Made by a program: the position numbers and the translations under genes. The notes under the pieces were generated by a model that saw only the letters and a list, made by a program, of their open reading frames with translations, did no database searches and was not told the origin of the DNA. Below, piece after piece: positions 7,001 to 64,000 of a DNA stretch of 64,000 bases (the stretch's first letter is position 1; every line of letters begins with the position of its first letter). This stretch comes from Vairimorpha necatrix (taxonomy: Eukaryota). The stretch covers positions 496,001 to 560,000 of the forward strand of contig CP142731.1 in NCBI GenBank assembly GCA_036630325.1. Direction: 5' to 3'.

Positions 7001-9153
7001 AACTGCTGTTTGTCCTTCAAAAAGATTTTCCTTGATCTCCTTCCAGTTTGGATTGCAAGTCATAGTAATAAAAAGATCGGGCTTGCCGAAACTTCTTACA
7101 ATTGACATTGCATCATGATATCGCTCTCTCATATTTCTCGGAGATCCTTGGAAACTTGATGGTAAGATAACGGGCTTGGCAGAACTTTCTGATCCATTAT
7201 TTACATAATCTACTAAGCCTTTGTAAAGATCTACCCTCAACTTCTTCTGATTTAACTTTATAAAGTTTAAGTTATTTGCTTCGACTTGTAGATATGAATC
7301 TACAATCCATTGTTGAAATAACTTTCCTTCATAAAGTAAAGGATTGAACTTATCCTTTCTTACAGATATTTGAGCTACTTTATATTGTAGCAGACTTATC
7401 TTCTGTGCCTCTCCAAGATAAGACTCCAACCTCAAATTTGCATTCCATCCAGCTTCGCCATGTGGATAGAACAAAGTATATGCCATTGGATCTAAATGTG
7501 GACTTAAAATATCCAAATGTAAATTATCTGAATTAAGCCCCTTGCTATATACTTTAATGTCCCTTTCAAATGGGGGTTCTCCATTTGGATCAGTGAAAAT
7601 CATTGCGATTTCACTTGTAGAGGGAGCATTATACCTTCTCTGATCTCTTTCTAAATTCTTATTAAAGACCATAGAAATGTCTTTAACTTCCTTTCCCAAC
7701 TCCTTTTGCTCCTTTATTACTTCAGACATATTTTTATATGCATCGGAATATGGGTTTGCTGATCTTATGAATCCATCTAATTTGCTCATGATATTAATAT
7801 CACAGTTTCTGTTAGATAGATTCATCATTCTTTGAGCATTGGCCATATCACTATCTACTACATATAGTTGAGAATATTTCTTTGGTGCATTAGAGTCCAT
7901 ATTATTTACATTATAAGTGTTATGATACACTTGTCCATGTATTTTGAATACATATGGTCCATTGGATACAGTTTCTATTTGAGCACCAAGAGAAGCAAAA
8001 GAAAGAGCAGCATTGTAGGATCTAATATTTTCTCTGAAGTTTTTTGCATCTTTATCTTTTCCAATGAATAAATTCTTAATGTCATCTGGAAAGTCTCTTG
8101 TTATTTGTAATTTGACTTTCCCAAAATGACAGCAGCTTTTGTATAATCCATTGCTGCTTGCTTCTCCAGCAAAATGTAATGCACCACAAAAGCCACATTC
8201 TTCTTTCAAATCTCCACAATAATGTTCAGCATGGTTTCTGCTTGTGATTCTACATGCTACATCTAATCTTTCCGTAAGAGCTTCTATTATTCTGTTATCT
8301 TTTAAGTCATCTAATTCTTCTTTGTTGTTTATTGGATTGCTTGGTGTTTTGTTGTCGCTAGAGAAACTGAATATCGAATTCCTTTTTTTTGTTTCTCCAG
8401 CATTTGTTTTTTTATTTTTTTGATTATATACAGAGGTGTTGGCCTCATAGAAAATAACATTGTTATTTTCTGTATTACTACATATCTCCTGAGAGATAGT
8501 AACAGTTGCTTTGGGTTGTTTATTAAAATCGTTGTTTGCTTGATTTTTCATAAACATAATGAGGGGTGGAGAAAAAAATTTTATTTATAGTTTTTAAAAT
8601 TCCATTGGGGAAGAAGAAAACAAAAATGAGAATATAATTTGATAAATAGAATTGATATTAGTGTGAATCTTATTTAATTGAGTTTGTTAGTCAGTTGATA
8701 AATTCCTACTGTTTGTAAATCATCTTTCCAATGTTTGTTTCTTGTTTTGATTTTCCATTTCTGGTAAGAATTAAAAAGGAGCAAATGTGATTTTTAGAAG
8801 TTAAGTATATTATTGAACCGACATTGCAGTTTTAGAGTTAATTCAGAAACAAATATAAATTCAATTGAGTTAATTTCACACATTAGCAACCAATTTTTTC
8901 TACATTTTGTTTCATATTGTTTTTGTTTTCTTTTTCTAAAAGGAAGAAATTAAAAAGGAGAAAATCATATTTCTAAGCATTTCGAAAATGATTTATAAAT
9001 CATGTGTAAAGAATGGAAGTGGGTTAAAATTGTGTATAAAATACAATTTAAGTATTCAAAATCATTTTTGAATCAAAATTTGCAATTTTATTTTTTTACC
9101 ATTTTTTATATTTTAGGGGTAAAAAATTAAATAAAATTCTTTTATATATATGA
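4045..9153 (-). mobile_element. Autonomous Helitron 1
   Basis: Minus strand starts TC (9153) and ends CTAG (4045); subterminal hairpin acccgttc-tga-gaacgggt 4058-4076; RepHel ORF. Confidence 0.95.
4253..8557 (-). CDS. Helitron Rep/Pif1-helicase, 1434 aa
   Basis: EFQKRGLPHAHIL HUH motif, YIFKYIYKG, GPAGSGKT, LLIDEVSM, GGDFRQ, HGQLYVALSRV; N-terminal Cys cluster. Confidence 0.96.
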   Translation of the reverse strand: MFMKNQANNDFNKQPKATVTISQEICSNTENNNVIFYEANTSVYNQKNKKTNAGETKKRNSIFSFSSDNKTPSNPINNKEELDDLKDNRIIEALTERLDVACRITSRNHAEHYCGDLKEECGFCGALHFAGEASSNGLYKSCCHFGKVKLQITRDFPDDIKNLFIGKDKDAKNFRENIRSYNAALSFASLGAQIETVSNGPYVFKIHGQVYHNTYNVNNMDSNAPKKYSQLYVVDSDMANAQRMMNLSNRNCDINIMSKLDGFIRSANPYSDAYKNMSEVIKEQKELGKEVKDISMVFNKNLERDQRRYNAPSTSEIAMIFTDPNGEPPFERDIKVYSKGLNSDNLHLDILSPHLDPMAYTLFYPHGEAGWNANLRLESYLGEAQKISLLQYKVAQISVRKDKFNPLLYEGKLFQQWIVDSYLQVEANNLNFIKLNQKKLRVDLYKGLVDYVNNGSESSAKPVILPSSFQGSPRNMRERYHDAMSIVRSFGKPDLFITMTCNPNWKEIKENLFEGQTAVDRPDLVAKVFNIKLKKMMEEILSGRVFGEVVAHVYSIEFQKRGLPHAHILIMLKDKIRDVSVIDKYVSAEIPSPMENEMLHNCVTKHMIHGPCGLNNLTSPCMENGVCTKEYPKEHNTGTKINNDGYPEYRRIRGTEYSVKGYIVTNANVVPYNAYLLEKYNCHINVEVCTSIKSVKYIFKYIYKGFDCAEMRITDNNEIDHFVNSRYVSAPEATWRLMEYKMHGRSHKIHRLPVHLPQEQLITFEEGREEEAVRLSDLRQTPLLAYFKLNEVDEGAHQFSYSEIPYHYTYKKGEWIRRKNKYSKIITRLYSVSPTEKERFSLRVLLINVKGARSYDDLRTVNGIVYSSFAEAVEERGLLQDDKEWERALDEAVATESPAIIRVLFGYICAFNKPKNTKELFDKYLGDMSEDLDQNSRDEVISRLKDIINAHGWSLNALGLDEPINYIEKAKTISDNKKDLDQMISSLNAKQKEAFNLITDNIDKRGNLFFLDGPAGSGKTYLYNVLIEYLNKNKKSSIQMATTGIAADLLKDGRTMHSCMKLPVPSTETSVSRLKQNTPEAERIIKASLLLIDEVSMMSKHALNAIDEVLKRLCNNDDIFGGKTLLLGGDFRQTSTIVMKGTPNDIIENSLISSRLWAHVCVLKLETNMRSYNQLKFNKWLLDIGEGRTRDSKGCVEIPKEYLEEGDIVDSIFGTIKIEAGDDSLFDKIILTSKNEHANELNAKVLNLLNGSSRVYVSSDAIESEDIEEQLRFPLGFLNMQQPSGLPPHKLVLKIGAIVMLLRNIDPKNGLLNGTRLKIKGLKDNYILGEIITGRGRGTLAVIPKIDMMPIDTLLPFVLKRRQFPVVLSYAMTIHKAQGLSFDKVGVYLPEDVFSHGQLYVALSRVKKSENLRIKLGTNRGETKNVVLHELIGS

Positions 9154-10198: not shown

Positions 10199-13100
10199 CT
10201 AGTGTATACAGACCCGTTCTTAGAACGGGTTGTTTGTGTTTGCATTGGTACGTGTTTCTTTATATTACAATCTCAATTAAAAAAATGGCATAGTTTTTGT
10301 ACGCTCACGGCGCATTTTATCATCTTTTATCTCATCCTTATTGGAAGAAAAATGGCATAGTTCTTGTACGCTCACGGCGCATTTCTCCATCTCTTGGCTC
10401 TTATGGGCCAATTAGTTCACGTAGAACTACATTTTTGACATTGCCCCTGTTTCCCCCCAACTTGATCCTCAAGTTTTCACTCTTCTTCACTCTTGACAAA
10501 GCTACGTATAATTGACCATGAGAAAATACATCCTCAGGCAAATACACTCCCACTTTGTCAAAAGACTGTCCCTGTGCTTTATGTATTGTCATCGCATATG
10601 ACAATACCACAGGAAACTGTCTTCTTTTAAGTACAAACGGAAGAAGAGTGTCACTTGGCATCATATCAATCTTTGGTATTACGGCAAGGGTGCCCCTTCC
10701 CCTTCCTGTTATTATCTCACCTAAGATGTAATTATCTCTGAGACCTCTTATCTTCAATCTTGTCCCATTTAATAATCCATTCTTAGGATCAATATTGCGT
10801 AACAACATCACTATTGCCCCTATCTTCAATACTAACTTATGTGGAGGTAGTCCTGATGGCTGTTGCATGTTCAAGAACTCAAGAGGAAATCTCAGTTGTT
10901 CTTCGATATCCTCTGATTCTATAGCATCAGAACTCATATATACCCTCGAAGATCCATTAAGAAGGTTTAACACTTTGGCATTCAATTCATTTGCATGTTC
11001 ATTTTTGCTCGTTAAGATAATCTTATCAAACAAAGAATCATCACCTGCTTCAATTTTGATTGTATCAAAAATGCTATCGACTATGTCCCCTTCTTCAAGA
11101 TATTCTTTGGGTATCTCCACACATCCTTTACTATCTCTAGTACGCCCCTCACCTATATCTAACAACCATTTATTAAACTCCAATTGATTATAAGATCTCA
11201 TATTCGTTTCAAGCTTTAGTACACAGACATGTACCCAAAGTCTTGAACTAATTAATGAGTTCTCGATGATATCATTTGGAGTACCTTTCATTACAATGGT
11301 TGATGTCTGTCTAAAGTCACCACCCAACAATAGAGTTTTCCCTCCAAATATATCATCATTGTCACAGAGTCTTTTAAGCACCTCATCTATTGCGTTCAAT
11401 GCATGTTTTGACATCATCGAAACTTCATCTATTAGCAATAAAGAGGCCTTTATTATTCTCTCTGCTTCTGGAGTATTTTGCTTTAGTCTAGATACGCTGG
11501 TCTCTGTCAAAGGAACAGGAAGTTTCATACAACTATGCATTGTTCTTCCATCCTTTAATAAATCTGCAGCAATACCTGTGGTTGCCATCTGTATTGAAGA
11601 TTTTTTACTCTTACTTAGATACTCGATCAGGACATTATATAAATATGTCTTCCCCGATCCTGCTGGTCCATCTAAAAAGAATACATTGCCTCTTTTATCT
11701 ATATTATCTGTAATTATATTAAACGCATTTTTCTGGTTTTCATTCAAAGAGGATATCATCTGATCTAGATCTTGTTCATTATCAAAGATAGTTTTTGCCT
11801 TCACGATATAGTTAATCGGCTCATCTAAACCCAGAGCATTTAAGCTCCATCCATGAGCATTAACTATATCTTTTAATCTACTTAATATTTCGTCTCTACT
11901 ATTCTGATAAAGATCTTCAGACATATCTCCAAGATACTTCTCAAAGAGTTCTTTGGTATTTTTAGGCTTATTGAAAGCACAAATATATCCAAACAATGCT
12001 CTTATTATTGATGGGGACTCGGTTGATACAGCCTCATCCAAAGCCCTTTCCCATTCTTTATCATCTTGAAGAAGTCCTCTTTCTTCCACCGCTTCTGCAA
12101 AAGAACTGTAAACTACACCATTTACAGTTCTCAAATCCTCATATGACTTAGCCCCCTTTACATTGATCAATAGGACTCTGAGGCCAAATCTTTCCTTCTC
12201 TATTGGAGATACAGAATAAAGTCTAGTAATTATCTTACTATACTTATTCTTTCTCCTGATCCATTCTCCCCTTTTATATGTATAGTGATAGGGTATCTCA
12301 CTATACGAAAATTGATGTGCTCCTTCATCAACTTCATTCAATTTGAAGTAGGCTAAAAGAGGAGTCTGTCTAAGATCAGACAATCTAACAGCTTCCTCTT
12401 CTCTGCCTTCTTCGAAAGTGATCAATTGTTCTTGTGGAAGATGCACAGGAAGTCTATGGATCTTATGAGATCTTCCATGCATCTTGTATTCCATTAATCT
12501 CCAGGTAGCCTCTGGTGCTGAGACATATCTGGAATTCACAAAATGATCAATTTCATTATTGTCTGTTATTCTCATTTCAGCACAATCAAATCCTTTGTAA
12601 ATATACTTGAAAATATACTTTACTGACTTGATAGAAGTACAAACTTCTACATTGATATGACAGTTGTATTTTTCAAGCAAATAAGCATTATAGGGGACCA
12701 CGTTAGCATTAGTAACAATGTTGCCCCTTATATTGTACTCGACACCCCTTATTCTTCGGTACTCAGGATATCCGTCATTATTAATCTTTGTTTCGTTATT
12801 ATATTCCTTAGGATATTCCTTAGTGCAGACACCATTTTCCATGCATGGACTTGTCAAGTTATTTAGTCCACATGGGCCATGAATCATGTGTTTTGTTACA
12901 CAATTGTGTAACATCTCATTTTCCATAGGCGATGGTATCTCTGCACTTACGTATTTATCGATCTTATTTTCATCCCGAATCTTGTCCTTTAACATTATTA
13001 ATATGTGAGCATGAGGAAGTCCACGTTTCTGAAACTCAATAGAGTAGACATGGGCTACGACTTCCCCAAATACTCTCCCCGACAAAATCTCCTCCATCAT

Positions 13101-16100
13101 ACTTTTTAATTTCATGTTGAAGACCTTTGCTACCAAATCTGGTCTATCAACTGCTGTTTGTCCTTCAAAAAGATTTTCCTTGATCTCCTTCCAGTTTGGA
13201 TTGCAAGTCATAGTAATAAAAAGATCAGGCTTGCCGAAACTTCTTACAATTGACATTGCATCATGATATCTCTCTCTCATATTTCTCGGAGATCCTTGGA
13301 AACTTGATGGTAAGATCACGGGCTTGGCAGAACTTTCTGATCCATTATTTACATAATCTACTAAGCCTTTGTAAAGATCTACTCTCAACTTCTTCTGATT
13401 TAACTTTATGAAGTTTAAGTTATTTGCTTCAACTTGTAAATATGGTTAAGTTCTCGACTTACCCCCCCCCCCCCCCACCCCTAAAAAAAATAAAAAAGGG
13501 GAAAAAATAAAAAAAATAAAAAATTTGACCCATAATGAGAATTAAAGAATTTAGAAAACTCATCTATAAAAAAAATGAGTTAATGCAATTTTTAATTGCA
13601 AAAAACATTTTGAGGGTCCCTATGTGCAATAAATGCAATATACCAATGACTCAAAATCGGACAAACACTGAAAACTATCGTTGTTATTCAAGACGTGATG
13701 GTAAAAAATGTTCTAACAAAGGAACCATAATAACAAAGCGTTTTTAAGAACTCAAAATTGCCTATTGAGGATCTTTTAATATTGCTTTGCGAATGGGTAA
13801 AGGGTTCAAGTAATTTGGCCGCCACGTTAGAACTTGATATAGGTAAATGTACGGTATCAAGATGGTTTACGCGTTTTAATAACGCCGTGTACGTCTCTTA
13901 TTCAACATATATAAACAATCAAACGATTGGCGGCGTCGGTTGTATTGTTGAAATTGATGAAACTTTACTTGTAAAAAGTAAAAACCATGCGGGAAGGGTT
14001 CTTCAATATCAAGTATGGGCAGTTGGAGGCGTTGTGAGAGGGGATGCAAATTCTTTTTTCTTTGAGATCGTAGAAAATAGAACAAGAGCTACTCTTGTTG
14101 AATTAATTACAAGAAAAATTGCTCCGGGGACCACAATTGTGACAGATTGTTGGCGTGGATATAGTGATATTCAAACAATCTGTGTAGAATATGAGTATCT
14201 ACATTTGACTGTGAATCACAGCCAAAATTTTGTTGATAATATAACTGGTGCGCATACTCAGACTATAGAGGGAATGTGGTCGGTTATTAAAAGAGAACTA
14301 AGAAAAGGCGGAACTAGTCATGGTACTATTATGAATCTTGTAAGAAAGATTTACATTAACAGATTCAAATTAATATATCGTGAAAATCTATTAGATAAAA
14401 TGTTAGAATTTTTTCAAATAGGTAATTTTAGTATTGTAGCTTATGATATTATTCCTGAAATAGATTTTACAATTGTGGAATAATTTCTTTTGTTTTTTTT
14501 GGGGGTAAGGGGGGTTAAGTCGAGAATTAAACGTTTTTTTATTTTTTTTTATTTTTTCCCCTTTTTTTATTTTTTTTTATTTTTTTTTATTTTTTCCCCT
14601 TTTTTTATTTTTTTTAGGGGTGGGGGGTAAGTCGAGAACTTAACCGTAAATATGAATCTACAATCCATTGTTGAAATAACTTTCCTCCATAAAGTAAAGG
14701 ATTGAACTTATCTTTCCTTATAGATATCTGTGCTACTTTATATTGTAGTAAAGATATCTTCCGTGCCTTTCCTAGATAAGACTCCAATCTCAAATTTGCG
14801 TTCCATCCAGCTTCGCCATGTGGATAGAACAAAGTATATGTCATTGGATCTAAATGTGGACTTAAAATATCCAAGTGTAAATTATCTGAATTAAGACCCT
14901 TGCTATATACTTTGATGTCCCTTTCAAATGGTGGTTCTCCATTCGGATCAGTGAAAATCATTGCGATCTCAAAAGTAGAGGGAGCATTATACCTTCTCTG
15001 ATCTCTTTCTAAATTCTTATTAAAGACCATAGAAATGTCTTTAACTTCCTTTCCCAACTCCTTTTGCTCCTTAATTACTTCAGACATATTTTTGTATGCA
15101 TCAGAATATGGGTTTGCTGATCTTATGAATCCATCTAATTTGCTCATGATATTAATATCACAATTTCTGTTAGATAGATTCATCATTCTTTGAGCATTGG
15201 CCATATCACTATCCACTACATATAATTGGGCATATTTCTTTGGTGCATTAGAGTCCATATTATTTACATTATAAGTGTTATGATACACTTGTCCATGTAT
15301 CTTGAATACATATGGTCCATTGGATACAGTTTCTATTTGAGCACCAAGAGAAGCAAAAGAAAGAGCAGCATTGTAGGATCTAATATTTTCTTTAAAGTTC
15401 TTTGCATTTTTGTCTTTCCCAATAAATAAATTCTTAATGTCATCTGGGAAGTCTCTTGTTCTTTGTAAATTAACTTTCCCAAAATGACAGCAGCTTTTGT
15501 ATAATCCATTACTGCTTGCTTCTCCTGCAAAATGTAATGCACCACAAAAGCCACATTCTTCTTTCAGATCTCCACAATAATGTTCGGCATGGTTTCTAGT
15601 ACTGATTCTGCAAGCTACATCTAGAATCTCCGTCAAAGCATCCATCTTAGTGTTATTAATTCTCATGATTGTTTCTTCTGTTTCTTCTGTTTCTTGGGCT
15701 GTTTTGTTTTCGCTAGAGAAACTGAATATAAAATTCCTTTTTTTTGTTTCTCCAGCATTTGTTTTTTTATTTTTTGTGTTATGTACAGATGTATTGGCTT
15801 CATAGAAAACAACATTGTTGTTTTCAGTATTACTACTTATCTCCTGAGAGATAGTGTTAGTTGCTTTGGGTTGTTCACTTGAATCATTTTTTGCTTGATT
15901 TTTTGTAAACATAATGGGGGTAAAGAAAAAAATTTTATTTATAGTTTTTGAAATTCCATTTTGGGAAGGAAGAAAACAAAAAGAAGAATTTGATTTTTTA
16001 GAATTAATAATCTACATTAAATAATATTCTTTTCGAAATTGATTTACAATTTGTTATAAAACTCATTGATATTGTTATTAATGTTTATAATCAATTTTAT

Positions 16101-51380: not shown

Positions 51381-52627
51381 CACCAGGTTGATTCTGCCTG
51401 ACGTAGACGCTATTCCCTAAGATTAACCCATGCATGTTTTTGATATGGAAAAATGGACTGCTCAGTAATACTCACTTTATTTAATGTATTAAATTAGTAT
51501 AACTGCGTTAAAGTGTAGCATAAGACATATACAGTAAGAGTGAGACCTATCAGCTAGTTGTTAAGGTAATGGCTTAACAAGGCAATGACGGGTAACGGTA
51601 TTACTTTGTAATATTCCGGAGAAGGAGCCTGAGAGACGGCTACTAAGTCTAAGGATTGCAGCAGGGGCGAAACTTGACCTATGGATTTTATCTGAGGCAG
51701 TTATGGGAAGTAATATTCTATTGTTTCATATTGTAAAAGTATATGAGGTGATTAATTGGAGGGCAAATCAAGTGCCAGCAGCCGCGGTAATACTTGTTCC
51801 AAGAGTGTGTATGATGATTGATGCAGTTAAAAAGTCCGTAGTTTATATTTAAGAAGCAATATGAGGTGTACTGTATAGTTGGGAGAGAGATGAAATGTGA
51901 CGACCCTGACTGGACGAACAGAAGCGAAAGCTGTACACTTGTATGTATTTTTTGAACAAGGACGTAAGCTGGGAGGAGCGAAGATGATTAGATACCATTG
52001 TAGTTCCAGCAGTAAACTATGCCGACGATGTGATATGATATTAATTGTATTAGATGATAGAAATTTGAGTTTTTTGGCTCTGGGGATAGTATGATCGCAA
52101 GATTGAAAATTAAAGAAATTGACGGAAGAATACCACAAGGAGTGGATTGTGCGGCTTAATTTGACTCAACGCGAGGTAACTTACCAATATTTTATTATTC
52201 AGAGAAGATTTATAATCTGAGAATGATAATAGTGGTGCATGGCCGTTTTCAATGGATGCTGTGAAGTTTTGATTAATTTCAACAAGACGTGAGACCCTTT
52301 TATTAATAGACAGACACAATCAGTGTAGGAAGAAAAGGATTAAAACAGGTCCGTTATGCCCTCAGACATTTTGGGCTGCACGCGCAATACAATAGATATA
52401 TAATCTTTATGGGATAATATTTTGTAAGAGATATTTGAACTTGGAATTGCTAGTAAATTTTATTAAATAAGTAGAATTGAATGTGTCCCTGTTCTTTGTA
52501 CACACCGCCCGTCGCTATCTAAGATGATATGTGTTGTGAAATTAGTGAAAACTACTTGAACAATATGTATTAGATCTGATATAAGTCGTAACATGGTTGC
52601 TGTTGGAGAACCATTAGCAGGATCATA
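51381..52627 (+). rRNA. Microsporidian SSU (16S-like) rRNA
   Basis: caccaggttgattctgcctgac start, gtgccagcagccgcggtaa, gtacacaccgcccgtc, aagtcgtaac, ggatca; ~1.25 kb. Confidence 0.98.
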
Positions 52628-52664
52628 ATAAGTTAAATTTAAATTAATTTTAATTATTAAATTT

Positions 52665-54258
52665 ACCCACACATGGGATCAATAGGATACCATAACGATG
52701 AAGGTCGTAATAGAATACGAAAGTATATTATTTACCTAATTAATATATTTATAATGTATTGATAACCCTTTGAACTTAAGCATATCATTAAAAGGAGGAA
52801 AAGAAACTAACTAGGATTTCTTTAGTAGCAGCGAGTGAACAAGAAATAACCCTCCATTGTAATCCTTAATTGGAGTTGTAAATGGTTTATTCTATTAATT
52901 ATATTTATAGAGAATATTATATTCGTTATTAATAGAATAGAATAATGTACTTGAGTAGAGCTGCTTGGTAGTGCAGTTTGAATAAAGGTAGAATGAAATA
53001 TCTAAGGTTAAATATAATGGTATACCGATAGAAAATAAGTACTGCGAAGGAACTTGTGAAAATGTGTGGAGTTTAGCCTTATTTTTAAGGACCCGTCTTG
53101 AAACACGGACCAAGGAGATTATAATTATAGCAAGATAAAAATTAAATTTTTTAATCTTTATTAACTTGATTAGTTATAATTATAAGACCCGAAACACAGT
53201 GAACTATACATGTTCTGGTTGAAGATAAGCAACAGTTTATTGGAAGACCATAATCATTCTGACGTGCAAATCGATGATTTAAGATGTGTATAGTGGCGAA
53301 AGACCAATCGAACTGTGTGGTAGCTGGTTCACAGCGAAATGTCTCTCAGGACAGCAGTTATTATTATATAGGACATAGATGTAGGACACTGTTATAGTTT
53401 TTTAACTATGAGAAATCTTTAATTCTATGGAATTATATAAATTAAATTTATATAATGAATCTATTGTATAACTAGTGGGCACATGATTGTAAGAATGATG
53501 TGCAAAAAGGGATGAACCTTATGAAACATTAAATATTCTAAATAGTAGATATTATACCATAAATATGATGAATACATTGAGACAGTAGGGCGGTTGTTAT
53601 GGAAGTAGAAATCCGCTAAGAAACGTGTTACAACGTACCTACCGAATGTATTATTGTATAAAATGGAAGAAGATTACTACTTTTATGAGATGTTTCTAAT
53701 AAATATTTAGGTAGCTGTGCAATTTGTTTGTATTGAAGTATATATGTGAGTATATATAGAAGAAACAAATGAGCCGATCTTGGAGGCAGTAACAATATAT
53801 TTGTATAGATATAGACTAGGGTTTTCAATTATTATTGAAGTGAATCGGTGTTATTTATAAAAACAAAAAAGATTAATAATTCTTTATTAAATTATTATAA
53901 GGTAACTTGATAATGACAGTATATTTCAATAAATTTAAGATAAATGAATTAAATTTTATTTTAACTATGGATTGTCATGATAAGAAATAGTTAATTATAT
54001 ATACTTGATAAAAATAAAATAATTTTAACCGTACCTATACCGCATCAGGTGTCTTTGTATCATAACAAATATTTTAAATTAAAGTAAGTAAGGGAATTCG
54101 GCAAATTAGATCTGTAACTTTGGGATAAAGATTGGCTCTAGCATGCTAGAACTTTTACTATGTAAGGAATCTGACTGTTTATTAAAAACATAGCTTTTTG
54201 TATTTACAAGAAGTGAATTCTGCCCAGTGCATTTATTGTTAAAGTTGTGTAAGCGAAT

Positions 54259-54311
<53 letters not shown>

Positions 54312-54410
54312 TTAATTGGTGACGCGCATGAATGGAGCAACGAGATTCCTACTGTCCCTACTTACAATTTTGTGAAACCACGAGACAAGGGAACGGGCTT
54401 GTTATTTATC

Positions 54411-54442
<32 letters not shown>

Positions 54443-54877
54443 TTAGTATGTTTTAATAAATATTCGGTATATTGTAGAGAGGTGGGAGAAGTATTGTGAA
54501 ACCACTAGTATGTTTGAATATTTATTTATTAGAATATATGGGGAGTTTGGCTGGGGCGGTACAGCTGTTAAAAAGTAACACAGCTGTCCTAAGGTAGATG
54601 AATGATGGATGGTAACCATCAGTTTATTATAAGGGAATAAATCTGCTTTACTTTATGCATATGACTGTATTTAGTAGGGAAACCTTGGCCTAGCGATCCC
54701 AATTACATTCATTATGTATTGGGTGATTGAAAAGTTACCACAGGGATAACTGGCTTGTAGCAGGCAAGCGATCATAGCGACTCTGCTTTTTGATTCTTCG
54801 ATGTCGTCTCTTCTGATCATCGTAGTGTATATGTTACGAAGTGTTGGATTGTTCACCCGGTAATGAGGAACGTGAGA

Positions 54878-54919
<42 letters not shown>

Positions 54920-55145
54920 TAAGTATTTTTGAGTGAACTTTGATAGTACGAGAGGAACTCTAAGTGATGACCACTGGTAGTGCGATTAACTATTAAGTTA
55001 TGTTGCTTAGCTACGTCGTTTCGATTAAGGCTGAAAGCCTCTTAAGCCTGAAGCGTAGCTCAAAGATACATTTAGGAGAATACTACTCTTTTAAGCAGAA
55101 CTGTAAGAATGAAGGTGTATGCCGACATTTTGAGGTTACTGCTTT
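52665..55145 (+). rRNA. LSU rRNA with fused 5.8S, after a ~37-nt AT-rich ITS
   Basis: gacccgtcttgaaacacggaccaagg, taaggtagccaaatgcctcgtc, sarcin-ricin agtacgagaggaac, terminal helix aagcagaac...gttactgctt; ends approximate. Confidence 0.96.
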
Positions 55146-55330
55146 TTTGTATGTATAGTAGGTGTTGTATACAAATAAGAGAGCGTATACGTCGCGGAGG
55201 GTGGGACCGATGTTTTTTAACTAGGTGCAGATCTCTAAGTCTTACCAACCTTCGGCTGCTGGTTGGTAAGTAGGGCCAGCTATACTCTAGGGGTGGGAGA
55301 CCCATTGCTGGTGAGAAGGACACCGTTAAC

Positions 55331-55399
55331 ACCCTCCATAAGAGAGCGTCCACGTCGCGGAGGGTGGGACCGATGTTTTTTAACTAGGTGCAGATCTCT
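55331..55399 (+). ncRNA. HDV-like self-cleaving ribozyme
   Basis: P1 ACCCUCC/GGAGGGU, P2 AGAGA/UCUCU, P3 GCG/CGC, L3 UCCACGU, P1.1 CC/GG, P4 ACC..GGU, J4/2 GCAGA. Confidence 0.9.
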
Positions 55400-55832
55400 A
55401 AGTCTTACCAACCTTCGGCTGCTGGTTGGTAAGTAGGGTCAGCTATACTCTAGGGGTGGGAGACCCATTGCTGGTGAGAAGGACACCGTTAACTTTCGAG
55501 TAATTCTTCATATTTTTAACCTGGGAGAGGTTGGGCATGATACTGAAGCTGTATTGTTCCGCTGAACTGAGTCGTGTTCTTAAATGGTGTATTGAACCAG
55601 GCGTTGTGTTTTCGTCAGGTCCGCGAAATATGTAGTCAGAGATGACTAAGGATCTGTTACCTACGGGAACAAATTTTTCTCCTACAAGCGAGGCCGTTGA
55701 GGTATGCTGGCGTGTAATCGCAATTATTGATGTTTTTCTGGTTGGTGGAGTTTTTGGTGGCTTGGTGGCTTTTCTTCGTTTTGCTGATTCTGTCTTTTTA
55801 CAATAAACAATTTTAATTTTATTTTTATTTTT
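55331..55832 (+). mobile_element. Ribozyme-headed SINE-like element, full length
   Basis: 15-bp TSD aaggacaccgttaac (55316-55330, 55833-55847); AATAAA then T-rich tail. Confidence 0.88.
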
Positions 55833-56007
55833 AAGGACACCGTTAACTTTCGAGTAATTCTTCATATTTTTAACCTGGGAGAGGTTGGGCATGATACTGA
55901 AGCTGTATTGTTCCGCTGAACTGAGTCGTGTTCTTAAATGGTGTATTGAACCAGGCGTTGTGTTTTCGTCAGGTCCGCGAAATATGTAGTCAGAGATGAC
56001 TAAGGAT

Positions 56008-56076
56008 ACCCTCCATAAGAGAGCGTCCACGTCGCGGAGGGTGGGACCGATGTTTTTTAACTAGGTGCAGATCTCT
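56008..56076 (+). ncRNA. HDV-like ribozyme, copy 2
   Basis: Same sequence as 55331-55399. Confidence 0.9.
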
Positions 56077-56505
56077 AAGTCTTACCAACCTTCGGCTGCT
56101 GGTTGGTAAGTAGGGTCAGCTATACTCTAGGGGTGGGAGACCCATTGCTGGTGAGAAGAACACCGTTAACTTCCGAGTAATTCTTCATATTTTTTAACCT
56201 GGGAGAGGTTGGGCATGATACTGAAGCTGTATTGTTCCGCTGAACTGAGTCGTGTTCTTAAATGGTGTATTGAACCAGGCGTTGTGTTTTCGTCAGGTCC
56301 GCGAAATATGTAGTCAGAGATGACTAAGGATCTGTTACCTACGGGAACAAATTTTTCTCCTACAAGCGAGGCCGTTGAGGTATGCTGGCGTGTAATCGCA
56401 ATTATTGATGTTTTTCTGGTTGGTGGAGTTTTTGGTGGCTTGGTGGCTTTTCTTCGTTTTGCTGATTCTGTCTTTTTTACAATAAACAATTTTATTTTAT
56501 TTTTT
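56008..56505 (+). mobile_element. Ribozyme-headed SINE-like element, full length
   Basis: 16-bp TSD agagatgactaaggat (55992-56007, 56506-56521). Confidence 0.88.
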
Positions 56506-56756
56506 AGAGATGACTAAGGATCTGTTACCTACGGGAACAAATTTTTCTCCTACAAGCGAGGCCGTTGAGGTATGCTGGCGTGTAATCGCAATTATTGATG
56601 TTTTTCTGGTTGGTGGAGTTTTTGGTGGCTTGGTGGCTTTTCTTCGTTTTGCTGATTCTGTCTGTCAGGGGACAAGCCCAGGTGCATACTGAGACTTGCC
56701 CTGCCCAAGGAATGAATTGTGTTTTGACAGGGCTTTGGAGAGACCAACACATTAAT

Positions 56757-56825
56757 GCCCACCACAAGAGAGCGTCCACGTCGCGGAGGGTGGGACCGAT
56801 GTTTTTTAACTAGGTGCAGATCTCT
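56757..56825 (+). ncRNA. HDV-like ribozyme variant (G1.U wobble, A-A mismatch in P1)
   Basis: P1 GCCCACC/GGAGGGU; core otherwise conserved; heads the SINE copy ending at 57252. Confidence 0.8.
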
Positions 56826-57252
56826 AAGTCTTACCAACCTTCGGCTGCTGGTTGGTAAGTAGGGTCAGCTATACTCTAGGGGTGGGAGACCCATTGCTGG
56901 TGAGAAGAACGCCGTTAACTTTCGAGTAATTCTTAATATTTTTAACCTGGGAGAGGTTGGGCATGATACTGAAGCTGTATTGTTCCGCTGAACTGAGTCG
57001 TGTTCTTAAATGGTGTATTGAACCAGGCGTTGTGTTTTCGTCAGGTCCGCGAAATATGTAGTCAGAAATGACTAAGGATCTGTTACCTACGGGAACAAAT
57101 TTTTCTCCTACAAGCGAGGCCGTTGAGGTATGCTGGCGTGTAATCGCAATTATTGATGTTTTTCTGGTTGGTGGAGTTTTTGGTGGCTTGGTGGCTTTTC
57201 TTCGTTTTGCTGATTCTGTCTTTTTTTACAATAAACAATTTTAATTTTTTTT

Positions 57253-57839
57253 AGTGGTAAAACCACAAATAAAACCAACTTTAATAGATTTAAATCACTT
57301 AAAGTAGAAACCGGCGGCAATATAAAAGTGCCCAAAAATACTATTTATGAAGTTTTAAACAGAAAATTTATCATTCCTAAAAAAGATATGAAGGGTAAAG
57401 CGCAACAAACCAGGAGCAAGCTCAGTAGAGCAAAAAGTGACCACTTTGGTGGTCCAAACAACAATTTAGATACAGAAATGTATTTAAAACAACAAACTAA
57501 GCATGTATATGCTAATAAAAGTTTCCCAAGTGTTACTTTCAAAAATGATGGAGAAATGAAATATTTTCTCAAGAAAATCAAAATTCTCTCAGAAAGAATT
57601 AATAAAAACGATATTTTTGACACGTCAAAAAAAGAAAATAACAAAGATCTTCTTGATATTAAAAGATACATATCTAGCACTACTGAATTAGTATTGATTC
57701 AGCAGACATATTTGGAGCTCTTCCATGATAAGCTAGAAAAACAAAATATCAAATTAAAAAATTTGAAAAAAAATAATCTGATGGATGACAGTAATCAAAT
57801 TACAGAATCAACAAAAAATAAAATTGAGATGATGATAGA
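57253..57839 (+). pseudogene. Older LINE ORF1 pieces (internal 57253-57387; N-terminal 57388-57839, continuing at 63613)
   Basis: Paralogous to ~58760-58895 and ~57842-58295. Confidence 0.85.
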
Positions 57840-57841
57840 AA

Positions 57842-59515
57842 ATGAAGGGTAAAGCAAGAGAAAGCAGGAGCGAGCTCAGTAGAGCAAAAAGTGACCACTT
57901 TGGTGGTCCAAACAACAATTTAGATATAGAAATGTATTTAAAACAACAAACTAAGCATGTATATGCTAATAAAAGTTTCCCAAGTGTTACTTTCAAAAAT
58001 GATGGAGAAATGAAATATTTTCTCAAGAAAATAAAAATTCTCTCGGAAAGAATTAATAAAAATGATATTTTTGACACATCAAAAAAAGAAAACAATAAAG
58101 ATCTTAGTGATCTTAAAAGATACATAGCTAGCACTACTGAATTATTACTGATTCAGCAGACATATCTGGAGCTCTTCCATGACAAGCTAGAAAAACAAAA
58201 TATCAAATTAAAAAATTTGATTAAAAATAATCTGATGGATGACAGTAATCAATTTACAGAATCAACAAAAAATAAAATTGAGATGATGATTGAGAATCAC
58301 TCAAAAGAATGTGTAGAACAAAAGGATAATAACTCCGATGTTCCAAATGATACCAGTAGCGAAACCCTTCAGTTAGCTACTGGAAACAATGATATTTCTA
58401 AATTAGAAATCATAAATGAAGATGTTTTAATTAATGTCAAAAATATCGTGTCTGCTGTCAAAGTAGAAGAAGAAGATCGATTGTCAGATGATGGCAAAAG
58501 AAAATGTATAGGTGTCTCAAATGCGTCTACAAATATTATAATTAATAAAAATATTAAAACAAAAGATGTTAAGCTAGACTTAGCTTTCATTAATAAAAAA
58601 GCAGTAGTTAGACATCTGTCAACTATCTCTGCTATTATAGCTGGTAAAAGAAAAGCTCCTAAGAATGGAGTCAAGCTTTTCCATATAAACGAAGACGGAT
58701 GGACATCTGTCAAACACACATTCAAGCCTAAAGTCCAGATAGACTTGAAGAAAAACAGAAGTGGTAAAACCACAGATAAAACCAACTTTAATAGATTTAA
58801 ATCACTTAAAGTAGAAACTAGTGGCAATGTAAAAGTGCCCAAAAAGATTAATCATGAAGCTGTAAAGAGAAAGAATATCATTCCTAAAAAAGATCATGAA
58901 AAGGAAAGATTACAAAATCAGAGAATAAATTTTACAAAAAAAACGAAGGACAGAAAAAATGAGAAATGTCAACAAAAAAGAGTTCCAGTTTTACCAAAGA
59001 AAAACTGGGCCAAAGAGCTATCTGAAGAAGCTCTTATGAAAATTATTAAGGATGGTAGAATTATTTCCAAGTGTAAGTTTAGGATAGCTCTTGTGTCTGG
59101 ACTCGGATTGAAAGGGAAACCTCAATCTAGAGACGCTTGGGCAGCCTTAGCTGATGTGGAAAATAAAGATATACCACTTATAAAACAATTTAAAGATTCG
59201 GAAGTAGTACTTCTGATGATTAGAGAACACGTGGGCCAAAAGGTACTAAGCAAAATTAAAGAAAAGTTCGGAGGTTCTAATATCTGCGATGAAGTTAATT
59301 TCTTCACCGACTTTATGTCTTTAACAAAAACAACTGTTCTAGGAGAGCTGCAAAGACTCTCTGGAACGCATAAAAATTTTGTACCGCTTGTAAAAGCATG
59401 TTGGTACATAACTAAAGAATTAAATAAAGAAAACCCAAACCATGGTTCTTTCATTATTTTAGAAAATATGATGGGTGAGCCTGCCCGAGAATCTAAGGAC
59501 TTTAACAATGAATAA
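57842..59515 (+). CDS. LINE ORF1, 557 aa, Lys-rich, no recognisable zinc knuckle
   Basis: Long ORF directly before ORF2, with diverged copies nearby. Confidence 0.8.
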   Translation: MKGKARESRSELSRAKSDHFGGPNNNLDIEMYLKQQTKHVYANKSFPSVTFKNDGEMKYFLKKIKILSERINKNDIFDTSKKENNKDLSDLKRYIASTTELLLIQQTYLELFHDKLEKQNIKLKNLIKNNLMDDSNQFTESTKNKIEMMIENHSKECVEQKDNNSDVPNDTSSETLQLATGNNDISKLEIINEDVLINVKNIVSAVKVEEEDRLSDDGKRKCIGVSNASTNIIINKNIKTKDVKLDLAFINKKAVVRHLSTISAIIAGKRKAPKNGVKLFHINEDGWTSVKHTFKPKVQIDLKKNRSGKTTDKTNFNRFKSLKVETSGNVKVPKKINHEAVKRKNIIPKKDHEKERLQNQRINFTKKTKDRKNEKCQQKRVPVLPKKNWAKELSEEALMKIIKDGRIISKCKFRIALVSGLGLKGKPQSRDAWAALADVENKDIPLIKQFKDSEVVLLMIREHVGQKVLSKIKEKFGGSNICDEVNFFTDFMSLTKTTVLGELQRLSGTHKNFVPLVKACWYITKELNKENPNHGSFIILENMMGEPARESKDFNNE

Positions 59516-62500
59516 AGTATCTTTGTTAAAGTCCTGTTATTATAGGAAATTATTTTCCTATAACAAGAGTGATATTTTCAAATCTCTAAATAAAAAAACG
59601 CATAATCCAATTGGATTTACTCAGATTAAAAATACTTTCCAAACGACAACGAGATTGAATAGTCTCAAATATTTTTCTATTAGAAAGAATATGTGGTGGA
59701 AGAAAGTACAAGAACAATATTGTATTGTCAAGATACAAAGAATTCCTTATGGAGTGAAAGATCTCCTCAAAGACTTATGTAAGAAGAACTCTCTTTTGGA
59801 GAATTCCATCATTACAGCAAGAAAGTATAGACGAAGAGACACGTCTTTTACAAAAATAATAGTTGAAAAACTATACGCAAATTTATTGATTAAGACAGTT
59901 AAAGCTAAAGGCTTTAAAGTTTTAAATGATAATAGAAAAGAACTAGAGAAATCTAGTAAAGTAAATAAAAAGACCAAAGAGAACATAAAACTCTTAAGTC
60001 TAAACATTAATCATCTCTCTAATAAGAGAGAAGAACTTGAGTTTCTTCTTAAGAAGGAGAAACCAGAAATTATGTGTTTACAAGAAACTTGGAGACAATC
60101 TACAAGACCTTTAAAACTTGAAAAATACACTACAGTTGAAACACCTAGTGGTGGAAAAAATAAACCAGGATTAATAACTCTGGTTAGAAATAATGGAGCG
60201 ATCAGATGTTCCAAAAAAGGAACCGACTCAAACATTCTGCAAACTGTAGTTGAGTTTAGTTCAGCAGGCAAATGGATTAAGTATTTAGTCTTAAATGTCT
60301 ACATACCACAAACAAGGATCTCAAAAGGGAGACCTTGGCTAGATTATTTTCTCTTTTAGAAAAAGAGAATTTCAGAAATAACTATAGTGAGATCATAGTG
60401 ATGGGAGATATGAATATGCAGAGTTCTAGTCTCAAGAAAAAATTAAATGTAGTTGGTTTGCCAGTTACAATAAAATATAACAGCAACGATGGTACAAGGA
60501 TCCTCAAAGATGGTAAAAGATCTAAGAGGAAAATTGATACCATCTTTCGACTAAAAAGTAATGATAATGAGAAGATCATTATATCCAAGTCTTGGGTATT
60601 AAGTGATCACTTAGTGCTCAAAAGAAGTATTAAACTTGCCGTTGATAAGATCTCCGATCAACTAGTTTATGATAAGAAAATGCTGGAAAATCCAAAAGTG
60701 ATTAAAAAGCTAAAAAAGAAGTTGTGTAATCAACAATTAAACATGAATAATCTCCCCGAGATTATTCAGAAAGTTTGTACATCTTTGAAGATTTACAAAA
60801 AGAGAAGAGTCCATACTGGACTTACAATGAGATGGAGATATTTAAAAGTCTTCAAAGAAAAACGTCTAGCAGCAAGAGCTGTTATGAAAAATTACAATGA
60901 AATCAACTCAATTAGATTCGAATATCTCAAAAAGAGAGTAGACGAAACTAAAAAGTTGATTCGCAAAGATAGATCGAAACTTTGGGCTTTAAGAGGAATA
61001 AAGCTCTTTAAAAGTAACAGATACCGAGAATTCTGGCAATGGCTGAAAAATAGAAGTGTTTCCATTCGTTTGGATCAAGTGGCTCTAATTGACCACAATA
61101 AGCTTCTTCAGACTTGCCGAGCAAAGAAGCTAGAAATAGCAAATAATTTTTACGCTGATTTGGCGTCAGAGAATGATATAGATGTCAATGTCTATGATAA
61201 AGTAGATCTTGTTGATCTTCCCCCAGAGATAACAGATGAAGAATTTCTATCCGCACTGAAGAAATGTGGAAATAACAAAGCTGCCGGTCCTGATGAGATT
61301 CCAACCGAGCTATACAAATACTTACTGACTAGAGCAGTAGAAGATAAATTCTTTAAATTCATGCTACATGAATTTAATAAATATATTTGTGGAAATAGTA
61401 CTCCTGAATATTGGAGCATGGCAAACATGATTTGCCTTCACAAAAAAGGAGATGAGACAGATCTGAATAATTATAGGGGAATCTCCTTAATTAACACAAT
61501 TAGTAAGATCTATCTCAAGATAATAAATGACAGGTTAACTCAATTTGTCGAAGAACAAGATATACTCTCTAGATACCAAGCAGGATTCCGAGCAGGTGAA
61601 GAGTGTATGAATCAGATTACATCTCTACTAGAAATAGTGAGAAGAAGAGAATTCAGAGGCTTGAACACAATAATGTGTTTCATTGACTTTGAAAAAGCTT
61701 ATGATAATGTAAGTCATGACTTATTATTTGAAAAGCTTACAAAACTTAATATCCCATTGTATTTAATCAATACAATAAAGGATATTTATAAATATACCAC
61801 CATGCGTGTGAAAATTGGTGGTGACACGTCAAGTGGTTATAGCTACAGAAAAGGAGTGAGACAAGGGTGCCCTTGTTCTCCAATGCTGTTCAATATATTC
61901 ATCAATGATATTTTTGACGGCATAGAAGGAGTTTTGATCCCAAGATCAAATACGAGAGTTCCGGGACTGATGTTCGCAGATGATATTGTTGTCTTCGGAA
62001 ACAACATTGATGATCTTAATAATAAGATCAATAGAATTTCAAAGTGGGCAGTTAATAACAGAATGAAGATTAACTGCACAAAAAGCGGAGTATTAGAATG
62101 GAATGCTCATTCTAACATACAAGAATTCCGAAGTTTATATTCTCTCAGTACAGACTTTGGTGTGATTGAAGAAGTCACTGAATACAGATATCTAGGTGTC
62201 TTAATTAAAAGAAACACGCTAGAAGAACACTTGGTTAAAGACGCAGCAATGCGTGGCAAGAAAGCCTTGGACGCCTTGATGCCCAAGTTGATGAATAGCA
62301 GCATCAATCTCTACTTCAAGGCGATCTTAATAAAATGTGTACTAGTACCCACACTAATGTATGGCAGTGAATTGTGGGGAATGTCAAGTACAAGAGCAGG
62401 TAAGATTAACAGGATCTTAAGAAAATCTATCAGAATGATATTCAAAAGAGTATTAGTTCCACTAGATAGAGTAATGGACGAGTTCAGTATCGAACGAATT

Positions 62501-63199
62501 CATATACAAGCAGCTTTGAGTAGATTCAGAGCATACAACAAGTGGAAACACAATAAGACAATCATATCGGATATAATCTCAATTAATCCGAAAGAAAGAA
62601 AAACTACCTGGTGTTCAAGAACACAAAGATGGTTAAAACGATTTGTTGGCAACGAATACGAATCAAGTGATAGTAGATTTATCACTACAAAAATAATTGA
62701 TGTACTAAGAAGTCGAAGAACTCTAAATACTTCTTTAGCTGCATCAATAGCAAACCAATATGACATAAGAAATTCACAAATAAAATATGTCATGAACAAA
62801 ATAAACAATAGAAAAATTAGAACATATACTAGATTGAGATGTAATCTAGTAAAGTGGTCCTCAGCAATAGCATATTCAAAAAGAATACCAATGAGTTATA
62901 GAAACAAATGCTTTTTGTGTGATGGACCACAAGAAAATTTAGAACACTTTCTGTTGGAGTGCGTCTGTTTTACTGACATTAGAACATCTTTTGAAAATAA
63001 ACTGCCTCTACTGACTTGTTCAAAAACAAATATCCGAGAAAAAACCAAACAACTCCTTGGTAATAAAATCGGACTAAAAAATAACCCAGATAAGATAAAA
63101 GAACTTTGTTGGACTATAGAGTTCTTAGATAGAATGGTTGTCTCTAGAAGAATTATATTTGAAAAGAAACTTAAAGAGATAACAAAACAGGATAATTAA
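59508..63199 (+). CDS. LINE ORF2: APE endonuclease, RT, CCHC; one -1 frameshift at ~60325
   Basis: SLNINHL, CLQETW, MGDMN, SDH; YRGISL, FIDFEKAYD, GVRQGC..SP.LF, FADD, YRYLG; CFLC..HFLLEC. Confidence 0.92.
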
Positions 63200-63612
63200 T
63201 ATGAATAATTAAAAACAATAAAATCTAGAAATGGAAGAAAGAGATGTTATTTTACTAACAAGAAAACTTATATTTAATTATATTTGACCTGGGAGAGGTC
63301 GGGCATGATACTGATGCTGTATTGTTCCGCTGAACTGAGTCGTGTTCTTAAATGGTGTATTGAGCCAGGCGTTTTCGTTTTTCATCAGACTCATGAAAGT
63401 GGGTCTCTAGTCATATTATGACTAAGGATGTATCCTATGGGAACAAACTTTTCTCCTACAAGCGAGGCCGTTAAGGTATGCTGGCGTGTAAACGCACTTA
63501 TTGATGATTTTTTCTTTATTAGTGGAGTTTTTGGTGGCTTGGAGGCTTTTCTTCGTTTTGCTGATTCTGTCTTTTTTTTACAATAAACAATTTTATTTTA
63601 TTTTTTTTTTTT

Positions 63613-64000
63613 GAGATGATGATAGAGAATCACTCAAAAGAATATGTAGAACTAAAGGATAAACCCTCCGATGTTCCAAATGATACCAGTAGCGAAACCC
63701 TTCAGTTAGCTACTGGAAACAATGATATTTCTAAATTAGAAATCATCAATGAAGATGTTTTAATTAATGTCAAAAATCTCCCATCTGCTGTCATAAATCT
63801 CGACACTGCTGTCAAAGTAGAAGAACAAGATAAATTGTCAGAAGATGGCAAAAGAAAATGTATAGATGTTTCAAAGGCATCTACAGATATTATAATTAAT
63901 AAAAATATTAAACCAAAAGATGGTAAGCTAGATATAGCTTCCATTAACAAAAAAGCAGTAGTTAGACATCTGTCAACTATCTCTGCTATTATAGCTGGTA
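63613..64000 (+). pseudogene. Continuation of the interrupted older LINE ORF1
   Basis: Paralogous to ~58280 onward; runs off the window. Confidence 0.85.

Follow-up and report, generated by a model that had tools for sequence, protein, structure and literature searches.

In classical pairs of short and long interspersed nuclear elements (SINEs and LINEs), such as UnaSINE1 and UnaL2 of the eel, the SINE borrows the 3' untranslated region (UTR) of the LINE for recognition by its reverse transcriptase (RT), its repeat-like tail varies in length, and its head is a promoter for RNA polymerase III (Pol III) that derives from a tRNA, 7SL, 5S or small nuclear RNA (snRNA). A head of another kind is present in the R2/R1 hybrid short internally deleted element (SIDE) of Drosophila, in which the R2 ribozyme lies directly upstream of the R1 3' UTR; insertions are flanked by 14-bp duplications and the RNA cleaves itself in vitro (Eickbush & Eickbush 2012, PMC3414825). 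In trypanosomes, NARTc shares its first 77 nt, a hepatitis delta virus (HDV)-like ribozyme, with the LINE L1Tc (PMC3383444), and TbRIME is described as sharing identity at its 5' end with the ribozyme of L1Tc (PMC3414825). Here we describe a locus of the microsporidian Vairimorpha necatrix at which four units of about 500 nt lie next to a LINE of the apurinic/apyrimidinic endonuclease (APE) type and share their 3' end with it. The locus belongs to a 64,000-nt stretch of contig CP142731.1 (assembly GCA_036630325.1, positions 496,001 to 560,000 of the forward strand), which was analysed as a whole and is called the window below; all coordinates count from its first nucleotide. We think it fairly likely that the units represent a family of retroposons in this Vairimorpha/Nosema-type microsporidian that are freed by a ribozyme and mobilised by a LINE.

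By their sequence, the units combine the SINE traits of being short and non-coding, sharing a 3' end with a LINE and being flanked by target-site duplications, but they lack the Pol III head of a SINE in the strict sense. [quoted passage not shown] In Microsporidia, LINE families have been listed by Parisot et al. in a report whose main text contains neither the word SINE nor the word ribozyme (PMC4202319).

Results

Nested copies at a retroposon array

When one unit was used as a BLAST query against the whole window, seven matches were obtained, six of them within 55175-57252 and the seventh in the 3' UTR of the LINE. Together with alignments, the six matches resolve into four copies on the + strand, here termed U0, u2, u3 and u4. 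Two of these are full-length, u2 (55331-55832, 502 nt) and u3 (56008-56505, 498 nt), and both are inserted into the older copy U0, which they split into three pieces: 55175-55330 (unit positions 8-163), 55833-56007 (positions 149-323) and 56506-56663 (positions ~308-465). A perfect 15-bp duplication, AAGGACACCGTTAAC, flanks u2 on both sides, its left copy at 55316-55330 being identical to 55833-55847 at the start of the second U0 piece. A perfect 16-bp duplication, AGAGATGACTAAGGAT, likewise flanks u3 on both sides, with its left copy at the end of the second piece (55992-56007) and its right copy at the beginning of the third (56506-56521), which ends before the tail. Without the second duplication copies, U0 consists of 55175-55330, 55848-56007 and 56522-56663, and it lacks unit positions 1-7 and about 35-45 terminal nt including the tail. 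The last copy, u4 (56757-57252), is near-full and differs from the other units at three positions of its initial 9 nt.

Since u2 and u3 interrupt U0, uninterrupted copies serve as each other's 'empty sites'. When a script removed each insert along with one duplicate, the restored U0 aligned to u2 with 455 matches, 3 mismatches and no internal gaps. Excision of the two inserts thus gives back a colinear older copy, which demonstrates that the units were retroposed. Target-site duplications can be assessed in two of the four units (u2 and u3) and are present in both. The copies are 98.3-99.3% identical (99.0% between u2 and u3), pointing to recent insertion events. AATAAA is found in the tails of u2, u3 and u4 as well as in that of the LINE, followed by T-rich endings that differ in length and pattern. 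Given a common AATAAA and T-rich runs that are particular to each copy, the tail belongs to the element and is renewed at every event. By all these features, the ~500-nt units are retroposed, non-autonomous non-LTR elements. An initial annotation, made from the letters alone, had proposed four such units of ~500 bp, duplications of 15 and 16 bp at two of them and a common AATAAA/T-rich tail, and on each of these points it was borne out.

The two mapped insertions place the first-strand nick just 5' of AAGG and of AGAG on the + strand (n = 2), too small a number for deriving a preferred target. The insertions (at unit positions 163 and 323) and the junction at ~465 all fall inside one older copy of ~500 nt and have the same orientation as that copy. 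Such clustering in U0 may reflect local reinsertion or a target preference in what is a very small sample of two mapped insertions.

Between U0 and u4 lies a 93-nt stretch (56664-56756, + strand) of higher G+C that folds into stems (two stems, -24.8 kcal/mol for the 104 nt folded); the window has no second copy of it, and Rfam gave no match for it on the + strand. This stretch may be a 5' flank that was brought along by an uncleaved transcript, or the product of a template jump. Head-to-tail joints occur at 57253, where the tail of u4 abuts the LINE copy, and at 63613, where the tail of this LINE abuts the next LINE copy, with no duplication visible at either joint inside the window. The joints could have arisen by separate insertions into tails, or by template jumps to the 3' end of another RNA in one event. 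Template jumping is known for the R2 reverse transcriptase (PMC3414825).

An HDV-like fold that starts on the first nucleotide of the unit

The first 69 nt of the unit (55331-55399 in u2 and 56008-56076 in u3, + strand) are predicted to fold as an HDV-like ribozyme, with a P1 of 7 bp, a P2 of 5 bp, a P3 of 3 bp, an L3 of 7 nt, a P1.1 of 2 bp, a P4 and CAGA in J4/2. P1 is formed by ACCCUCC/GGAGGGU, which would put cleavage 5' of A56008 in u3, and C56068 is the putative catalytic residue. In the HDV-like core, two letters of L3 pair after P1 to form P1.1 and a C is located in J4/2. The corresponding letters of the unit are UCCACGU in L3, whose CC pairs with the GG that follows P1, and G-C-A-G-A in the J4/2 region; U and G of L3 form a pair in HDV-like ribozymes (PMC3774820). 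RNAfold by itself gives P1, P3 and P4 of the predicted ribozyme in u3.

The window was scanned with a descriptor that had been fixed beforehand. It demanded 7 bp in P1, where G.U was permitted; a stretch of 5-20 nt containing J1/2 together with a P2 strand no shorter than 5 bp; three Watson-Crick pairs in P3; 6-9 nt in L3; P1' immediately following P3'; pairing of the two letters behind P1' with L3 (P1.1); and CNRA preceding P2'. On the + strand the descriptor matched at 55331 and 56008 only, that is, at the first nucleotide of u2 and of u3, and the nested double-pseudoknot order P1-P2-P3-L3-P3'-P1'-P1.1-P4-J4/2-P2' is present in both; on the - strand a single match was found at 19712, in A+T-rich sequence. 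In 79 dinucleotide shuffles of the window, both strands taken together, the mean number of matches was 2.56 and the maximum 8 (~2e-5 per position). Shuffled heads gave 2 matches per 390,000 positions (5e-6) and none at position 1 in 3000 trials. For a chance fold that starts exactly on the duplication-defined first nucleotide, the odds are therefore about 1e-5, and the coincidence is not by chance.

A 111-nt piece of u3 searched against all 4227 Rfam families, on both strands, had one match, the CPEB3 ribozyme (RF00622), with 16 bits and an E value of 0.04. The alignment has P1, P3 and L3 in register, with 15 of the 16 letters of the P3-L3 core equal to the consensus. The CPEB3 matches of the units reach 16.0 and 14.3 bits, far below the gathering score of 35, so that by this measure the sequence is no recognised member, and CPEB3 is the only HDV-like family that the check in Rfam brought up.

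The other two copies have defects in the fold. The P1 5' strand of u4 reads GCCCACC, with a G.U at the base and an A.A mismatch at pair 5, and U0 lacks exactly the 7-nt P1 5' strand and has TATACGT instead of TCCACGT in L3 (CC to AT). The HDV-like fold that the initial annotation ascribed to the units is thus found in u2 and u3 with the descriptor, and in u4 when one P1 mismatch is tolerated, but not in U0. In R2 and other HDV-like ribozymes, mismatches within P1 have been associated with cleavage being lost in vitro (PMC3774820). These copies with a defective fold are also the ones that do not begin at the predicted site, and u4 has 93 extra nt upstream. A GTATAC hexamer just 5' of the U0 junction and the TATACGT in its L3 (55163-55192) constitute a short direct repeat around the junction, which may be due to chance or be left over from repair. 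Alternative upstream partners for P1 were considered for U0 and u4 and set aside as not specific, many pyrimidine-rich 7-mers being able to pair with GGAGGGU by way of G.U.

Three circumstances lend credibility to the fold: both descriptor matches start on a nucleotide that the duplications fix independently, the defective copies U0 and u4 are those that do not start at the site, and the only Rfam match of the 111-nt search is an HDV-like ribozyme with its core in register. An HDV-like self-cleaving ribozyme at the 5' end of the unit is therefore probable on structural prediction. An exact-pattern scan for the ribozyme core returned 0 hits in metagenome contigs and 0 in viral contigs.

The remainder of the head and the lack of a Pol III signature

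Downstream of the predicted ribozyme, unit positions 70-186 (~115 nt; 56077-56193 in u3, + strand) form hairpins according to RNAfold, among them a perfect 10-bp stem, CUUACCAACC/GGUUGGUAAG. The hairpin region has no match outside the units in the window and belongs to no Rfam family. ARAGORN found 0 tRNA genes in 54000-58000, and no Rfam family of a tRNA, 7SL, 5S or snRNA head was found in the unit. Scanned with the consensus sequences of the Pol III boxes, the head contained a box B with two mismatches at best, and the best box A, with one mismatch, is located at unit position 429, within the 3' module. The ~110 nt of hairpins and the head of neither tRNA nor Pol III type that had been annotated at the outset are in agreement with these results. 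Since there is also no open reading frame (ORF) of 80 aa or more on the + strand of the unit, the unit is, as judged from its letters, non-coding and without a recognisable promoter of its own.

The shared 3' module and its LINE

The 3' part of the unit (~315 nt; 56194-56505 in u3, + strand), with AATAAA and the T-rich tail, is homologous to part of the LINE 3' UTR (63283-63612, + strand), which has the same elements. BLAST aligned unit positions 187-499 with 63283-63606 of the LINE at 87.1% identity over 326 columns, confirming the homology that had been noted between 55519-55832 and 63287-63612. The identity is mosaic, with 95.5% in the first 89 columns, 64.2% in the next 67 and 88.6% in the last 140, a pattern to be expected where constraint acts on parts of the module. 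The predicted structure of the module has one compensatory change among 73 pairs, which is too little to support a conserved structure. An exact scan of genome contigs with a 31-nt piece of the module returned 0 hits.

The LINE copy itself (57253-63612, + strand) was delimited with Pfam, tblastn and self-BLAST. It comprises ORF1 (57842-59515, 557 aa), in which Pfam detects no domain at E values up to 0.01, ORF2 (~59508 to 63199), which encodes APE, RT and a C-terminal Cys/His motif, and a 3' UTR (63200-63612). In ORF2, RVT_1 is recognised by Pfam at 6.4e-39 and Exo_endo_phos at 18.1 bits, below its cut-off of 24.5; the N-terminal part aligns with relatives carrying PF03372. From these domains, the partner is an APE-type non-LTR retrotransposon. 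In tblastn comparisons with intact relatives of 1223-1237 aa, ORF2 shows one frame change near 60311-60317 and otherwise full-length similarity, and the frameshift could be a base-calling error of the long-read assembly. The closest relatives of the LINE protein are a 593-aa V. necatrix protein that is 86% identical and clusters at 58-79% with named members from Vairimorpha ceranae. The following LINE copy (63613-64000, + strand; BLAST 88.5%) is 5'-truncated, starting at the equivalent of 58279, and runs off the window.

The 5' part of the first LINE copy is rearranged. Positions 57388-57843 are 94% identical to 57842-58297, a 456-bp segment from the ORF1 ATG that is present in tandem, and the tandem segment is preceded by about 160 bp (57253-57413) that are 85% identical to the ORF1-internal 58760-58921. 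Both internal junctions restart at ATGAAGGG, the start of ORF1, with a 2-nt overlap. They could stem from a LINE RNA with hardly any leader, by template jumps from its 5' end, or from a plain tandem duplication. Over the 6.4 kb of the LINE, the 186-nt head of the unit finds no match at a word size of 7 and E values up to 1, and a relaxed ribozyme scan of 57201-58400 had a single hit made of A-T pairs.

Scans guided by ORF2 recovered 80 loci in metagenomes, the best of them 30% identical, 12 loci at 24-32% in genome contigs and no relative in viral contigs. All of these loci are too distant for reading covariation or for revealing how the LINE family begins at its 5' side. On the + strand of the 92 loci, the strict descriptor had 38 hits. 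Most fall in simple repeats of the TA type, no hit coincides with an element's 5' end, and all were dismissed as chance. The best relative, L001, resides on a metagenome contig, where an initial 123 nt of large subunit (LSU) ribosomal RNA (rRNA) sequence end after GGGATAACTGGCTT and are followed by a LINE with a single ORF for APE and RT (1401 aa). As the LSU fragment comes directly before the LINE, this relative sits within an rRNA gene. At the junction (within 1-330 of L001) there is a possible HDV-like core, with CCCCTCG/CGAGGGG as P1, ACC/GGT as P3 and an L3 of 7 nt; it matches the relaxed descriptor only and no Rfam ribozyme. At the Rfam gathering threshold, the twenty metagenome relatives L001-L020 contain an LSU fragment in L001 and nothing else.

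Setting of the array

The array is located downstream of an rRNA gene pair, consisting of a small subunit gene at 51381-52628 (Rfam SSU_rRNA_microsporidia) and an LSU gene at 52743-55077 (+ strand; LSU_rRNA_eukarya, 1342 bits; 55077 is the end of the local alignment). A spacer of about 97 nt separates the 3' end of the LSU gene from the first retroposon copy (U0, at 55175), which has the same orientation. At the gathering threshold, rRNA families alone were found by Rfam in the whole window. Elsewhere the window encodes a Ty3/gypsy-type polyprotein (119-3928, + strand), in which Pfam recognises protease, RT, RNase H and integrase, and two Helitron genes on the - strand that both have Helitron_like_N and PIF1 helicase domains (4253-8557 and 10401-13280), the second being N-terminally shorter than the first. 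The window is thus a nest of mobile elements (Ty3/gypsy, two Helitrons, LINEs and the retroposon units). Repeats make up ~50% of the V. necatrix assembly according to its description (PMC10759460).

Discussion

How might a non-coding unit without an evident promoter propagate itself? Retroposition, a precise common 5' end, a 3' module shared with a LINE, the domains of that LINE and the absence of a small-RNA head can all be read from the sequence of the locus. From these features we infer the remaining parts of a cycle, namely the source of transcription, self-cleavage, 3'-end formation and the LINE copy that supplies the protein. A copy would be transcribed within a longer transcript and not from a promoter of its own, with read-through from the LSU rRNA gene, ~97 nt upstream in the same orientation, as one possible source. 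Within such a transcript, the first 69 nt would fold as an HDV-like double pseudoknot and cut at their own 5' edge, yielding an RNA that starts with ACCCUCC, and the 3' end would form at or after AAUAAA in the U-rich tail. The ORF2 protein of the neighbouring LINE family, with its AP-endonuclease and RT, would recognise the shared 3' module ('stringent' recognition of the 3' UTR). The target would then be nicked and the RNA copied by target-primed reverse transcription as far as its cleaved 5' end, which would give rise to the 15-16-bp duplications and to T-rich tails that vary in length.

Several observations weigh against this scenario. Three descriptor matches were observed where 2.56 are expected by chance, and the fold alone is therefore not significant. 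Both Rfam scores (16.0 and 14.3 bits) fall short of the gathering score, the predicted cleavage-site pair is A-U, P4 is weak, and the covariance model alignment allows a second assignment of P2 and J4/2 that does without P4. The helices are identical across the three to four copies, apart from the defects of u4 and U0, and covariation is unreadable because the copies are nearly identical; scans of metagenome, viral and genome contigs yielded no divergent homologue. Copies that define the 5' end number two (u2 and u3), while U0 and u4 do not begin at the predicted cleavage site. The tail is T-rich and not A-rich, which is unusual. Finally, the adjacent LINE copy carries a frameshift and diverges by 13% in the 3' UTR. 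On this last point the initial annotation, which had the units mobilised by the adjacent ORF2, probably requires correction: the 3' module is indeed shared with an APE- and RT-encoding LINE, but given the frameshift and a 3' UTR identity of 87%, the real driver is probably another LINE copy or subfamily than the adjacent one.

It is possible, albeit rather doubtful in our view, that the mechanism is as proposed but the units are internally deleted LINEs, or SIDEs in the strict sense, and that full-length LINEs of the family begin with the same ribozyme head, which the copies in the window lack through 5' truncation or rearrangement. Both LINE copies in the window are incomplete or rearranged at their 5' side, so the true 5' end of the LINE is not in view. 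HDV-like ribozymes are common at LINE 5' ends (PMC3774820). R2 SIDEs and TbRIME are reported to have arisen in this manner (PMC3414825), and NARTc and L1Tc have their ribozyme-bearing first 77 nt in common (PMC3383444). Moreover, in L001, the relative within an LSU rRNA gene, P1 and P3 can tentatively be drawn right at the 5' junction. However, this fold agrees with the relaxed descriptor only, the 186-nt head has no counterpart in the 6.4-kb LINE, and the relaxed ribozyme scan of 57201-58400 gave one hit of A-T pairs only. The restart of the LINE junctions at ATGAAGGG fits the 5' end of a headless RNA, but fits a tandem duplication as well.

An unlikely scenario is that a LINE-dependent retroposon carries an HDV-like fold by fortuity, its 5' end being the start of transcription from an upstream or internal promoter. 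Chance matches of the descriptor (~2.6 per window), the sub-threshold Rfam scores, the A-U cleavage-site pair and the lack of covariation would all be compatible with it. It is difficult to see, however, why such a fold should start on the defined first nucleotide (~1e-5 by chance) and why its P3-L3 core should coincide with that of CPEB3 in 15 of 16 letters. Neither a Pol III head nor Pol III boxes are at hand to provide the internal promoter, and if the start were fixed by a promoter further upstream, it would not move along with the element to new sites. That no retroposition took place at all, the units being the result of segmental duplication, unequal crossing-over or repeat mis-assembly, seems very improbable to us. 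A dense repeat array beside rDNA is certainly error-prone in assemblies, but here two complete, tailed units interrupt a third at different positions, with perfect 15-16-bp duplications and exact restoration upon excision. In-register unequal crossing-over between units would not yield this nested pattern. A LINE-mobilised retroposon freed by its own ribozyme is thus the reading that we favour.

A bolder extension of this reading, to which we give little credence, is that the unit is a parasite without a promoter, living on read-through from the rDNA units that are dispersed in Nosema/Vairimorpha genomes. Those copies whose ribozyme is intact would free themselves, whereas crippled ones such as U0 and u4 would stay joined to upstream sequence and carry a 5' flank to new sites. 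At the extreme, a whole rDNA unit might be copied in this way, adding to the scattering of rDNA loci that is observed in the group.

Should self-cleavage be confirmed, no self-cleaving ribozyme and no LINE partner with a ribozyme head would, as far as we can find, have been reported for Microsporidia before. The claim of novelty made at the outset holds insofar as no report of either in a microsporidian was found in full-text searches of the literature (Repbase, Dfam and supplementary files, in which the family could be listed, being outside the search). It was overstated with respect to ribozyme-headed LINE partners as such, which are documented for R2 and the R2/R1 SIDEs (PMC3414825) and for L1Tc/NARTc (PMC3383444). 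The strategy is known from the SIDEs of Drosophila and from NARTc/RIME of trypanosomes, and no new kind of mechanism is involved. It would nonetheless allow a short retroposon to stay mobile where room for promoters is scarce, because a precise template would come from any transcript that crosses a copy. As a natural test case the nested copies are clean, their 5' end being fixed independently by the duplications, and the family provides a handle on the active LINE families in Vairimorpha/Nosema genomes.

How the unit relates to known systems depends on which of its parts is compared. At its 3' end it resembles UnaSINE1/UnaL2, with an end common to the LINE and a tail of variable length, and it is unlike them in having no Pol III head. 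In the HDV-like ribozymes the usual cleavage-site pair is a G.U wobble. The predicted fold of the unit has an A-U pair there and scores 16 bits against the gathering score of 35, which sets it apart from the CPEB3 family (RF00622). Against CPEB3, its P3 is GCG/CGC, its 7-nt L3 is one letter off the consensus, and the C in J4/2 is followed by AGA. Like the CPEB3 and R2 ribozymes, as these are described in PMC3774820, it is a nested double pseudoknot in which a 7-bp P1 comes immediately 3' of P3/L3.

With NARTc/L1Tc and RIME/ingi, the unit has in common that it is a short, dispersed, non-autonomous element with a 5' HDV-like ribozyme (here predicted) and a 3' end shared with a LINE (PMC3383444, PMC4035085). 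No sequence relationship to these elements was found. The first 77 nt of NARTc/L1Tc are presented as promoter and ribozyme in one and are carried by the LINE, whereas the unit has no evident promoter and the LINE copies that we see have no such head.

The closest parallel remains the R2/R1 SIDE, in as much as it is set out in the report of Eickbush and Eickbush (PMC3414825). In both cases, an HDV-like ribozyme (predicted here) precedes a 3' UTR that belongs to a different LINE, of the APE type, in a non-coding element of a few hundred nt, and at an rDNA locus the element is found head-to-tail among copies of its partner LINE. The partner is described as recognising its 3' UTR in the stringent manner, and transcription is thought to rely on co-transcription and not on a promoter of the element itself, as we propose for the unit. 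Duplications are also of similar size, 14 bp in the SIDE versus 15-16 bp here. The SIDE uses the fixed R1 site in the 28S gene, whereas both insertions mapped here are in another copy of the unit, within an array downstream of the LSU gene. R2 is the source of the ribozyme in the case of the SIDEs; no autonomous source of the unit's head shows in the window, whose 5'-incomplete LINEs lack it. The unit further departs from the SIDE in its T-rich tail and its microsporidian host, and its cleavage is a prediction where that of the SIDEs has been seen in vitro.

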